A stretch of 63,400 nt of DNA, filler included, from Anaerolineae bacterium (GTDB taxonomy: Bacteria > Chloroflexota > Anaerolineae > Epilineales > Epilineaceae): the NCBI GenBank assembly GCA_029262755.1. It is 9 parts of 9 records of this genome, joined end to end, with 100 filler letters (N's around TTAATTAATTAA, not from the genome) between each part and the next. Parts side by side here need not be neighbours in the genome. Positions count along the whole stretch, not along the records: positions 9,239 to 33,993 come from JAJCYU010000210.1; 8 more parts are not named here. The stretch is one strand, 5' to 3'. This document shows positions 24,001 through 27,000 of this stretch, piece by piece. The number at the start of each line of letters is the position of its first letter. Within the stretch, counting starts at the first letter, position 1. The position numbers were made by a program.

Positions 24001-27000
24001 GCGATCCGCCTCGATAGTACGCCGCCATCGTGCGGTCATGGCACGGTCACGGCGCCTTCGCGAAGCCGATTCATCGCCGTGACGCGCGATACCCAGCCGG
24101 CCCAATCACTCCAGCCAAACCGCCCCTACCGACCCCTGCCGGCTTCACCCTCGGCGGGCGGCGCCTATCATGGGAGGGAGTCGCGCGGGCGGCAAGGTGC
24201 TCGCGTTCGGAGGGCGGCCGCGTGACGGGCGCCCGCCCTTGTTGTGGGAGCGCCAGCCATGACCGAAGCGCCGCGTGCGATCGGCCTGTTCTCCACTCTG
24301 ACCAGCACCGGTTCGCGATCGATCGTGCTGCGCATGCTGCACGAGATCGGCGCCGGGCACCTGGGGCCCGTGCGGGTCGCGTTCGTGTTCGTCAACCGCG
24401 AGGCCGGCGAGTCGGCCGTGACCGACCAGAGCGTTGCGCTCGTCGCGGAAACCGGCGTGCCGGTGATCCGCGCGTCGGCCGTCGGCTTCGAGCGCGACGA
24501 GAGGCGCGCGGCGCGAGAAGCCGCGCGAGAAGGCGATGACATGGCGCTATGGGCGTGGCGTGACCGCTTTCACGAGCATGTTCGCACGCGGATACCCGAC
24601 ACGGACCTGGACCTGCTGCTGGGCGATATGTGGATCTGGGGGCCTGCCCAATGCGCCGCGCGCCGGGGCGTCAACCTGCATCCATCGCTGCCTACGGGGC
24701 CATTGGGCACGATGTGGTACGACGTCGTCTGGGATCTGATCGCCCAAGGAGCGCCGGAGTCGGGCGTGATGCTGCACCGCGTGACGCCGGACGTGGATCG
24801 AGGGCCGGTGGCCAGCTGGTGCCGGTATTCTCTGCGCACGCCGGAACTCGATGCACTGTGGGCCACCCTGCCGGCCGATCCGGCCGAACGGTCGGCGCTC
24901 ATCGCAGAGCAACGGGCGCTGCGCCGGGACAGCGAGCATCCGCTCTTCCACGCCGTTCGCGCGGCCGGCTTCGCGCGCGAGACGCCGCTCATGCTCGAGA
25001 CCGTGCGCGCGGTGGCGGAGGGTCGATTGCGCCTGGCGGACGGCCGTGTGCTGGACGGCGGGGATCGACCCTTGGACGGCGGGCTCGACCTCAGCGGAGC
25101 GGTCGAAAGGGCGGTTGAGGCGGGGCCGTAGATTGCGTGCGTGGTCGATCTCAAGCCGGCGACACAGCCGACCGGAGTCTTGCCCTCGCCCGCTGGTGAG
25201 GCTCGGCGGCGCCATGTACAATCGCGGCTCGACTGCGTGGGCCGCAGAGCGGGGAGCAGCCGCTCGGTCCATCCCCCATCGTCCGCCCGCGGGAGAGCCG
25301 CATGTCCGAAGCCCCAAAGCTGCGCGTCCTGGTCATCGGCCGTGGTGGTCGCGAGCACGCCCTTGCGTGGGCCATCGCGCGATCGCCGCAGGTCGAAACG
25401 GTGTACGTCGCACCGGGCAACGGTGGGACGGCCGGCGAAGACAAGGTGGAGAATGTCCCGCTGACCGAGAACGACCTGGAGGGTCTCGCGTCGTTCGCGA
25501 AGCAGCGCAAGGTCGGGCTGACGATCGTCGGGCCGGAGGATGCGCTGGCCAAGGGGGTCGTGGACCACTTCCACGCACATGACCTACCGGTCTTCGGTCC
25601 CACGCGCGACGCAGCGCGGCTCGAGACGAGCAAGATCTGGTCACGAGAATTCATGGCGCGCCACGGCATCCCGCATCCGGCCTTCGAGGTTTGTCACGAC
25701 GTGGAGGCGGCACGGGCGGCGGTCCTCGAGTTGGAGGGGCACTGTGTGGTGAAGTGTGACGGCCTCGCGGCCGGCAAAGGCGTCGCGGTTTGTGAAGAGG
25801 TCGAGGAGGCACTGACCGCTGTCGACGACATGATGGTCAAGCGCATCTTTGGCGACGCGGGATCCCAGTTGCTCGTCGAGGAGCGGCGCGACGGCGTGGA
25901 GCTTTCCGTGATGGCTCTATGTGACGGGACGGAGTACGTGTTGCTACCGCCGAGCCAGGACCACAAGCGGCTCCTGGAACGCGATCGCGGTCCGAACACC
26001 GGCGGGATGGGTGCCTACGCGCCGGCTCCGCTCGGCACGCCGAAAATGCTCGATGCGGTTCGCCAACAGGTGATCGAGCCGACCCTGGCCGGCATGCGCG
26101 CCGAGGGCACCCCCTTCGTCGGCTGCCTGTACGTCGGGTTGATGGTGGACGAACGCGGCATCACCGTCATCGAGTACAACGCGCGCTTCGGCGATCCAGA
26201 AACGCAGGTGCAGCTACCCCTCGTCGCATCCGATCTCGCCGCCGTGCTGCTCGCCGCGACCCAAGGGCGCGTGGCCACGCAGCCCATTTCGTTCATCGAG
26301 GACGCAACGGCCGTTTGCATCGTGCTCGCCGCGCGCGGCTACCCATTCAGCCCACAACGCGGCTTCGTCATCGACGGGTTGGCGACGGCGGAGTCGCGAC
26401 CGGGCATCAAGGTGTTCCATGCTGGAACGAAGCGCGACGACGTCCAGATCAAGAGCAGCGGTGGACGCGTGCTCAACGTCGTGTGCGTCCGTAACGGCTT
26501 GCAGCCGGCCGTCACCGGCGCGTACAGCGCGATCGGTGCGGCCGGCGTTCATTTCGAGGGCATGGCATACCGGACGGATATCGCCTTCCGTGCGCTTTCC
26601 GCCCCCACGCGCTAGGTAGATCGATCATGTCCCGGAAGCCCATCGTTGCGACCCTCGGCAGTCACTCGGCGCTGCAGATTCTAAAAGGCGCTGCCGACGA
26701 GGGTCTGTCCAACACCGTGATCGCGACGCGCGGCCGCGACGCACTCTACCGCCGCTACCCCTTCGTCGACGAGGTCATGGCCATCGACGGCTACGACCGC
26801 TTCGGCGCGCTCGAGCCGGAGCTGAAAGCACGCGGCGCGGTGCTCGTGCCACACGGATCCTTCGTGGCCTACCTCGGCGAGACGCTCAACCAGACCATGG
26901 ACGTCGGCTACTACGGCAGCCGCAACGTGCTGCGTTGGGAGGCCGATCGCGCCTTGCAGCGCGAGTGGCTGGAAGCCGCAGACATCCCGATGCCGGCCGA

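Follow-up and report, generated by a model that had tools for sequence, protein, structure and literature searches.

A divergent PurN-like protein upstream of purD in Epilineaceae: a probable GAR formyltransferase from a Chloroflexota-wide subfamily

Introduction

The purine gene block of an Anaerolineae bacterium from the family Epilineaceae (assembly GCA_029262755.1) opens with a gene for a divergent PurN-like protein, which raises the question of which enzyme formylates GAR in these bacteria. A preliminary description had put this protein (P0001) forward as the sole candidate for the step. We refer to the whole stretch of DNA that was analysed (63,400 nucleotides) as the window. Both this genome, with an assembly that is 84% complete, and many of its relatives are incomplete MAGs.

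The gene and its purine context

The plus strand holds a real, PurN-like ORF of 290 aa at 24259-25131, and its position directly 5' of purD, as first described, was reproduced by translation and by Pfam matches of the neighbours. A GTG at 24244 is also open and would give a 295-aa alternative, but the ATG at 24259 is favoured because a GGGAG is placed 8 nt before it. The genes lie on the same strand in the order purN-like gene, purD, purP, purP, purE, purC, and purM:

24246..24250, plus strand: Shine-Dalgarno-like GGGAG, 8 nt 5' of the ATG (from sequence)
24259..25131, plus strand: purN-like gene, proposed GAR formyltransferase (translation, model, PurN structural matches, hhalign)
25302..26615, plus strand: purD (GAR synthetase; Pfam GARS_N/A/C; TIGR00877, 497.8 bits)
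26627-27697, plus strand: first PurP-like gene (Pfam DUF1246 and DUF1297)
about 27730-28824, inside the ORF 27424-28824, plus strand: second PurP-like gene (Pfam DUF1246 and DUF1297)
28835-29362, plus strand: purE (Pfam AIRC)
29368-30330, plus strand: purC (Pfam SAICAR_synt)
30538-31671, plus strand: purM (Pfam AIRS/AIRS_C)

PurD makes the substrate that we propose for the PurN-like protein. The PurP pair scores 224.8 and 196 bits against PF06973. FolD was found in this genome, as was a separate Fmt (contig C400, 256.1 bits), and none of PurU, Fhs, PFL, or PurO was found in the 84% complete assembly. Within the Epilineaceae, two PurP are present in 16 of 17 genomes and PurH in 0 of 17, and in 9 of the 17 the purN-like gene has purD at most 3 kb downstream of it on its own strand. 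The purine pathway of this family thus looks like a mosaic, with a Dehalococcoidia-type PurN beside a pair of archaeal-type PurP genes and with PurH and PurO both missing. PurD itself is absent from most sister families of the Epilineaceae within the order Epilineales.

Closeness to PurN

By single-sequence profile scores, the protein is hardly recognizable. It reaches only E 0.011 and 15.9 bits against Pfam Formyl_trans_N (PF00551; cut-off 26.1), the same values as reported before, and 21.2 bits against the NCBIfam PurN model (TIGR00639), far under the cut-off of 150.1. Among the 65 sequences of the broad subfamily, on the other hand, the PurN model matches 58, more than any other family does, with E 3.1e-21 for the best member. 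Profile-profile comparison (hhalign) aligns the subfamily with 16 Chloroflexota PurN over 198 columns at E 2.4e-29 and with six PurU over 153 columns at E 2.5e-13. When the subfamily profile was run against PDB sequences, the first 18 matches were PurN (5.8e-15 to 2.5e-7); PurU followed from 4.2e-7, and no sugar formyltransferase appeared at E<=1e-3.

The predicted fold gives the same ranking. An AlphaFold2 model of P0001, built from the 65 sequences (pLDDT 97.2, pTM 0.93), has its first strand beginning at residue 6 and a Formyl_trans_N fold spanning the whole PurN chain. In Foldseek the top seven matches of this model are all PurN, with 3tqr again on top, as in the preliminary description, now at E 2.5e-13. 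In VIA-align (50 rows) the top 22 are all PurN, with Z from 20.7 to 16.8; E. coli PurN (1cde_A) superposes at Z 20.7 over 205 of its 209 residues with an rmsd of 2.8, whereas the best matches outside PurN are PurU (Z 16.8), Fmt (15.9), and a sugar formyltransferase (13.6). The subfamily therefore lies nearer to PurN than to any of PurU, Fmt, and the sugar formyltransferases, and the earlier view of a PurN-like sole candidate for GAR formylation is strengthened by profile-profile comparison, structure, the PDB profile search, and the exclusion of PurN discussed below. P0001 most likely belongs, as a strongly diverged member, to a separate subfamily that derives from PurN and is found across the Chloroflexota.

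Two other identities were rejected. PurU (3o1l; L112:716-1570) resembles P0001 in catalytic domain fold, triad, and length, but has an N-terminal ACT domain and the motif H-H-S-F and forms a separate tree clade; P0001 has no ACT match, no TIGR00655 match at E<=10, and reads H-P-S-L. Methionyl-tRNA formyltransferase is set aside likewise, since P0001 has no TIGR00460 match and the genome encodes its Fmt elsewhere.

Catalytic residues and a replaced phosphate loop

The landmarks within the protein are the following:

24490..24549, plus strand: insertion 1, about residues 78-97, with a helix at 79-90 (gap in PurN by hhalign and MAFFT; boundaries approximate)
24667..24693, plus strand: GVNLHPSLP motif, residues 137-145, with N139 and H141 (HMMER alignment to E. 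coli PurN)
24781..24810, plus strand: VTPDVDRGPV motif, residues 175-184, with D180 (HMMER alignment to E. coli PurN)
24844..24942, plus strand: insertion 2, around residues 196-228 (some 30 alignment columns that PurN, PurU, and Fmt lack; boundaries approximate)

Both motifs noted in the preliminary description are present in the translation. Its equating of N139, H141, and D180 with N106, H108, and D144 of E. coli PurN (1cde, 1c2t) is borne out by a HMMER alignment, which also pairs R101 with R64; none of the three residues varies in any of 89 close relatives, and the N139/H141 site is kept in 61 of the 65 sequences of the broad alignment. PMC3261824 names His108 and Asp144 of PurN as catalytic. 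The motif around the histidine is H-P-[SA]-L, in the style of PurN and Fmt. Toward the C terminus, the L..R....E-H motif is also present: L229, R234, and E241 match the nearly invariant Leu and Arg and the invariant Glu of PurN, the His is replaced, and R240 directly precedes the Glu. Across the subfamily, L229 and E241 never vary and R234 and R240 hardly do; within the branch of P0001 (87-89 sequences), all four are invariant, together with R101. The Asn-His-Asp triad and the Leu/Arg/Glu motif are common to PurU too and thus do not separate formyl transfer from hydrolysis.

The loop after strand 1 is where P0001 departs from PurN. The SGxGSN loop of PurN binds the GAR phosphate, and in the 16 Chloroflexota PurN its S and both G are invariant and its N nearly so. 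This loop is not kept in the subfamily, which mostly has S-T-G-R-D with a four-residue insertion; P0001 itself reads STLTSTGS. GAR binding is consequently not readable from homology.

Insertions rather than a tail

E. coli PurN and P0001 share a whole-chain fold at about 20% identity, and P0001 is the longer protein. The preliminary description attributed the difference to an extra helical tail of about 80 residues, which needs correction: residues 1-209 of E. coli PurN are spread across model residues 6-278, so the extra length lies mostly inside the chain and consists mainly of two insertions of about 20 and about 30 residues within the PurN fold, with about 12 extra residues at the C terminus. 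Insertion 1 is longest in the branch of P0001 and shorter in Dehalococcoidia-type members, as judged from alignment blocks. Insertion 2 forms helices at 195-201 and 208-220 in the model, ahead of the helix that carries the conserved L229..R234..R240-E241.

Distribution across the Chloroflexota

The subfamily is common in Dehalococcoidia and, within the Epilineales, occurs in the Epilineaceae alone. At E<=1e-10 its full-length relatives fall into 211 clusters, and the species genomes that carry one number at least 586, most of them Dehalococcoidia; this contradicts the Epilineaceae-only distribution proposed at first. Inside the order, the previous counts were reproduced, with orthologs in 16 of 16 other Epilineaceae genomes and in none of the 18 other Epilineales genomes. 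In the tree, the clade of P0001 nests inside the broad subfamily on a stem of 0.69 (SH-aLRT 100).

The claim that the gene shares the distribution of the PurP pair does not hold either: PurP is present in 0 of 20 Dehalococcoidia carriers and full-length PurH in all five carriers tested for it. As these carriers have PurH and lack PurP, the subfamily goes with the folate-dependent pathway.

A sample of 201 Chloroflexota genomes, this one included, relates the subfamily to the rest of the pathway. A full-length member (at least 228 bits) is present in 21 of them. PurN over its cut-off is found in 0 of these 21 carriers versus 139 of the 180 non-carriers, PurD in 21 of the 21 carriers, and PurT in 0 of the 201 genomes. 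Both absences stated earlier are confirmed, PurN over cut-off being missing from all 17 Epilineaceae and PurT from the whole sample. The order Epilineales (35 genomes, 20 of them PurD-positive) repeats the pattern: 16 PurD-positive genomes have the purN-like gene without PurN, four have PurN without the purN-like gene, and the two never occur together. The purN-like gene and canonical PurN are thus mutually exclusive in PurD-positive genomes.

Gene context differs in Dehalococcoidia, where purD, purP, purE, purC, or purM was found near the subfamily gene at 0 of 80 loci (flanks up to 8 kb; the locus search used the narrower alignment A2). A Pfam check of neighbours covered 46 of 63 ORFs at six Dehalococcoidia loci, leaving out the outermost ORFs and a wrong-strand ORF over the gene at locus L014. 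No sugar-nucleotide genes were seen by Pfam among the neighbours examined at the six loci and at the locus described here. On three of five large Dehalococcoidia chromosomes, the only Formyl_trans_N proteins are an Fmt-like gene product and the subfamily member.

The protein of Dehalococcoides mccartyi (WP_010936454.1, AAW39985.1, UniProt Q3Z8J6; cluster of P0239; also listed as "formyltransferase family protein") is a useful reference. It belongs to the same subfamily, aligns with P0001 over the full length, falls in one clade with it (SH-aLRT 100), shares insertion 2 and the conserved residues, and is the only PurN candidate of its genome. Sequences of the broad subfamily (alignment A1) are 24-42% identical to P0001, a range that is not a figure for P0239 itself. 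Unlike P0001, the D. mccartyi protein scores over the Pfam cut-off; its gene has no adjoining pur genes, the neighbours being a PHP-domain gene, efp, clpP, and tig; and a D. mccartyi-type genome (G026) encodes PurH as well as PurU and lacks PurP. The PurU of this genome is a true one (TIGR00655, 382.8 bits; cut-off 285.95), and both PurU and Fmt are separate from the subfamily member, which itself reaches 75.3 bits against TIGR00639 (cut-off 150.1).

Proposed function and alternatives

Since canonical PurN and the purN-like gene exclude each other, PurT is absent, and PurD is present, P0001 can be placed at the GAR step, as PurN is in E. coli, following PurD. The distribution strongly supports this role. 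We consider it probable that the product of this gene is a GAR formyltransferase (EC 2.1.2.2) dependent on 10-formyl-tetrahydrofolate, a functional counterpart of PurN that replaces it in its lineages. GAR made by PurD would then be formylated with 10-formyl-THF supplied via FolD, with His141 and Asp180 working as they do in PurN. Because the PurN SGxGSN loop is not kept, we propose that the GAR phosphate would be held by the rebuilt loop between strand 1 and helix 1. Speaking against a GAR role are the replaced phosphate loop, a sugar formyltransferase (WbkC) as the best single-sequence PDB match, the lack of nearby pur genes in Dehalococcoidia, and the formate requirement of the PurP pair in an 84% complete assembly where no formate source of the PurU, Fhs, or PFL type was found.

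The last point leaves room for a hydrolase role. In the Epilineaceae, the PurN-like protein might cleave 10-formyl-THF to give formate, with GAR then being formylated by one of the two ATP-grasp PurP enzymes and AICAR by its partner. The gene shares one block with two purP genes in a family without PurH, FolD is at hand, hydrolases have the same N-H-D triad, and the long stem of the branch would fit a changed activity. Moreover, PMC3261824 proposes that in Thaumarchaeota PurU supplies PurP with formate, and it states that what the second PurP cluster does is unknown. Nonetheless, we regard this reading as unlikely. The subfamily as a whole occurs with PurH and without PurP, a true PurU coexists with a subfamily member in G026, and P0001, without ACT domain or H-H-S-F, is far closer to PurN than to PurU. 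The invariance of R101, L229, R234, R240, and E241 in the branch argues against a change of function. Three f8 genomes, each with three PurP copies and a canonical PurN, have no PurU-like second match, so PurP-bearing Chloroflexota get their formate in another way. Formylation of GAR is not known for any PurP. If the hydrolase reading were true, the Epilineaceae would have a bacterial purine pathway without any folate-dependent transformylase, and the second PurP cluster, long unassigned, would gain a function. In a milder reading, the whole Chloroflexota subfamily may form a class of GAR formyltransferase with a structure of its own, which may bind GAR through the rebuilt phosphate site and the inserted helical element.

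Formylation of some other amine, such as a nucleotide-sugar amine in the style of WbkC or Rv3404c, with the adjacency to purD a coincidence, is very improbable: the GDP-perosamine N-formyltransferase WbkC (5vyt) is the best single-sequence PDB match (residues 104-244, E 1e-4), its alignment extends into the insertion 2 region and an ARE-P motif, the PurN phosphate loop is not kept, and the Dehalococcoidia neighbours are not pur genes, yet this match is lost with the subfamily profile, WbkC ranks 35th in Foldseek (E 3.8e-9) and is absent from the 50 VIA-align rows, sugar formyltransferases reach Z 13.6 at best against 20.7 for PurN, the genomic context is unrelated to that of WbkC, and all carriers, though PurD-positive, would be left with no GAR formyltransferase.

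Annotation status

The preferred assignment as a GAR formyltransferase agrees with what databases already say of the relatives. The PurN label on the Chloroflexota subfamily is known from annotation: GenBank, UniProt, and IMG name members, e.g., in D. mccartyi, phosphoribosylglycinamide formyltransferase, and a literature search for a paper on this subfamily found none. The earlier statement that the protein is invisible to family models therefore stands for this divergent branch at the Pfam and NCBIfam cut-offs and fails elsewhere, as five subfamily proteins from Dehalococcoidia reach 50-57 bits in Pfam. With pipelines that use these cut-offs, no gene is assigned to GAR formylation in the Epilineaceae, which could then be mistaken for purine auxotrophs; the present analysis fills that gap, and we judge the GAR formyltransferase call to be safe. 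More broadly, a large PurN-like subfamily without the PurN signature loop bears the PurN label in Dehalococcoidia, among them D. mccartyi, an organism of bioremediation.

Signals around the gene

No terminator-like site lies between the purN-like gene and purD. A search with Rfam gathering scores gave no match anywhere in the window, and within 23700-25400 nothing matched even at E<=1; the gene is thus preceded by no known riboswitch. Upstream, a consensus scan returned one promoter site versus 0.2 expected in shuffles:

24144..24171, plus strand: weak sigma-70-like promoter match TTCACC-16-TATCAT (consensus scan; pattern match only)

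Gene and operon

The gene of P0001, a 290-aa PurN-like protein, is predicted with good confidence to encode a folate-dependent GAR formyltransferase, so the functional call of the preliminary description stands as the probable one. The protein belongs as a divergent member to a PurN-derived subfamily whose entries already go under the name PurN in databases. The gene lies in the following context.

Features of the P0001 gene and its operon (window positions)
24259-25131, + strand: P0001 gene, an open frame of 290 aa
8 nt ahead of the P0001 ATG, + strand: GGGAG, read from the sequence
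Five codons 5' of the P0001 ATG, + strand: alternative GTG start in open frame
25302-26615, + strand: purD, 3' of the P0001 gene
26627-27697, + strand: PurP-like gene 1 (DUF1246 and DUF1297)
About 27730-28824, + strand: PurP-like gene 2 (DUF1246 and DUF1297)
After the PurP-like genes, + strand: purE, purC, and purM (Pfam)

A weak sigma-70-like pattern match sits about 90 nt 5' of the gene. No terminator-like site was seen in the interval to purD, and an Rfam scan of the gene region gave zero family matches. Divergent from the operon runs a 907-aa ORF (21132-23855, - strand) with no Pfam match at E ≤ 1e-3. The contig in question (C210) covers window positions 9239-33993 only, in an assembly that is 84% complete and split over 428 contigs. 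The drop in G+C at 56001-60000 (0.39-0.53 vs about 0.68 elsewhere) falls outside C210 and thus comes from a different contig.

Relationship to PurN

Family models score P0001 itself poorly: it reaches 15.9 bits against Pfam Formyl_trans_N (cut-off 26.1), as reported before, and 21.2 bits against the NCBIfam PurN model (cut-off 150.1). A single-sequence search of PDB sequences puts the sugar formyltransferase WbkC on top (E 1e-4), with the PurN structure 3tqr at 1.3e-3. At the sequence level such a search is ambiguous as to identity, whereas the picture is clear once relatives are included. With a 65-member subfamily profile, the first 18 PDB matches are PurN (5.8e-15 to 2.5e-7), PurU matches begin at 4.2e-7, and no sugar formyltransferase appears at 1e-3 or better. 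Compared profile to profile with 16 canonical Chloroflexota PurN, the subfamily aligns over 198 columns (E 2.4e-29), which takes in nearly the full length of both proteins; with six PurU the alignment has 153 columns (E 2.5e-13).

The structural comparisons agree with this. An AlphaFold2 model of P0001 built on the same 65 sequences (mean pLDDT 97.2, pTM 0.93) finds PurN structures on top in Foldseek (3tqr at 2.5e-13). PurN alone occupies the first 22 rows in VIA-align (Z 20.7 to 16.8), and the best scores for other classes are 16.8 for PurU, 15.9 for Fmt, 15.5 for the FDH hydrolase domain, and 13.6 for sugar formyltransferases.

In a tree of the subfamily with PurN, PurU, and Fmt of Chloroflexota (quick search, midpoint root), the 32 subfamily rows group in a single clade (SH-aLRT 100, stem 1.31) beside a PurN group, and PurU and Fmt each occupy a separate long-stemmed clade. 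The branch of P0001 (eight rows, SH-aLRT 100) is nested within the broad subfamily.

Active site and insertions

In a HMMER alignment, N139, H141, and D180 of P0001 fall on N106, H108, and D144 of E. coli PurN, in line with the proposed catalytic triad, and R101 falls on R64; all four are invariant in 89/89 close relatives. The His-Pro-Ser-Leu motif is of the PurN and Fmt type, whereas PurU has His-His-Ser-Phe instead. L229, R234, and E241 match the conserved Leu..Arg..Glu(-His) motif of PurN, which PurU shares.

The supposed C-terminal tail of some 80 residues dissolves on alignment: residues 1-209 of E. coli PurN span model residues 6-278, and the extra length is thus mostly internal.

Extra segments of P0001
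About residues 78-97: inserted helix, longest in P0001's branch of the subfamily
About residues 196-228: second insertion (~30 residues), preceding the helix with L229, R234, R240, and E241
C-terminus: about 12 extra residues

P0001 also departs from PurN in the loop after strand 1. In PurN this loop, S-G-x-G-S-N, holds the GAR phosphate. Its S, G, and G are invariant in the 16 PurN and its N nearly so. The subfamily does not keep it: most members have S-T-G-R-D, and P0001 has STLTSTGS. Four distant members (P0217, P0224, P0225, and P0233), which may be inactive paralogs, have the catalytic Asn and His replaced in all four and the Asp in three.

Extent of the subfamily

A search of 5.8 billion proteins returned 88 close relatives (41-71% identity), many named phosphoribosylglycinamide formyltransferase or PurN in IMG, and one distant match. 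Among 50%-identity representatives, an exhaustive search found 354 clusters with E ≤ 1e-3, of which 211 reach ≤ 1e-10; full-length matches at 30-45% identity are numerous among them. Patterns from 16 full-length relatives matched at least 586 stretches in a species-genome collection, and the best 80 of these all carry Dehalococcoidia, SAR202, or Chloroflexota in their titles; the gene is therefore not the preserve of one family. Nor is the subfamily invisible to models, since five subfamily ORFs scanned at these loci pass the Pfam cut-off at 50-57 bits. The member in a D. mccartyi-type genome (G026) has the same sequence as a Dehalococcoides mccartyi protein (WP_010936454.1 cluster); GenBank, UniProt, and IMG call that protein phosphoribosylglycinamide formyltransferase, and RefSeq lists it as formyltransferase family protein. 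ESM Atlas neighbors, mostly from Chloroflexota, bear the former name too. A literature search found no paper on the subfamily.

None of the best 80 loci (0/80) has purD, purP, purE, purC, or purM in the up to 8 kb searched around it, and at six loci inspected it is surrounded by housekeeping genes (a PHP-domain gene, xseAB, efp, pepP, clpXP, tig). In Dehalococcoidia a PHP-domain metallohydrolase gene often precedes the subfamily gene (L111:3165-5636; loci L048, L092, and L018). At two loci a PfkB-family (ribokinase-like) kinase gene lies 3' of it, abutting in the D. mccartyi-type locus and separated by a HAD hydrolase gene in L092. Single members P0176 and P0269 come from records named Candidatus Gottesmanbacteria and Candidatus Aenigmarchaeota, which could reflect transfer or binning error.

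Distribution against PurN, PurT, and PurD

The phylum sample comprised 201 evenly drawn Chloroflexota genomes, at least 85% complete, with the source genome (G000) included.

Purine enzymes and the subfamily in the phylum sample
Full-length subfamily member (at least 228 bits): 21/201 genomes
PurN over cut-off in carriers: 0/21
PurN over cut-off in non-carriers: 139/180
PurT: 0/201
PurD: 169/201, all 21 carriers among them

Three unpublished genomes (G043, G167, and G186) are counted here as non-carriers with PurN and PurD; without them, PurN occurs in 136/177 non-carriers and PurD in 166/198 genomes. Eight carriers, all of family f23, have a PurN-like match of 115-131 bits, and the one of these that was scanned (G026) proved to be a genuine PurU (TIGR00655, 382.8 bits). 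By our reading of the table, most genomes without PurN and without the subfamily gene also lack PurD, and about eight PurD-positive genomes have neither. One genome with PurD (G121, 97% complete) has a subfamily gene broken by stop codons (C9:99684-100158), and no PurN was found there at E ≤ 1e-25. In three of five large Dehalococcoidia chromosomes the only Formyl_trans_N proteins are one Fmt-like protein and the subfamily member; in the other two a third gene is Fmt/ArnA-like.

Within the order Epilineales (35 genomes), the gene is indeed confined to Epilineaceae (17/17, others 0/18). PurD is over cut-off in 16/17 Epilineaceae, the exception being 65% complete; outside the family it occurs in exactly four genomes, and within the order PurN reaches its cut-off in these four alone. 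The other 14 of the 18 (within G222-G239) have neither over cut-off and may be purine auxotrophs; if so, Epilineaceae kept or regained the pathway. Nine of the 17 Epilineaceae have the subfamily gene within 3 kb 5' of purD on the same strand, and the same nine have a PurP gene within 5 kb of it.

Formate and the PurP enzymes

The purD-purP-purP block (25302-28824) is conserved. Epilineaceae have two PurP genes in 16/17 genomes and PurH in 0/17, and PurO was not found in G000, which leaves the IMP cyclohydrolase step without a candidate. FolD and Fmt are present in G000, which hence both makes and uses 10-formyl-THF. As sources of formate for the PurP enzymes, PurU, Fhs, and PFL were looked for and not found in this 84%-complete assembly. 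A less likely reading is that P0001 has a PurU-like role, supplying formate to PurP as a passage of PMC3261824 proposes for PurU in Thaumarchaeota. Against such a role, Dehalococcoidia carriers have PurH (5/5 tested) and no PurP (0/20), one carrier has a separate PurU, and the residues conserved across the subfamily are all invariant in P0001's branch. Three sampled genomes combining PurP with canonical PurN also count against it, as they show no PurU-like second match. These three (G006, G019, and G032, family f8) have three PurP copies each and are the only others with PurP in the sample of 201 Chloroflexota.
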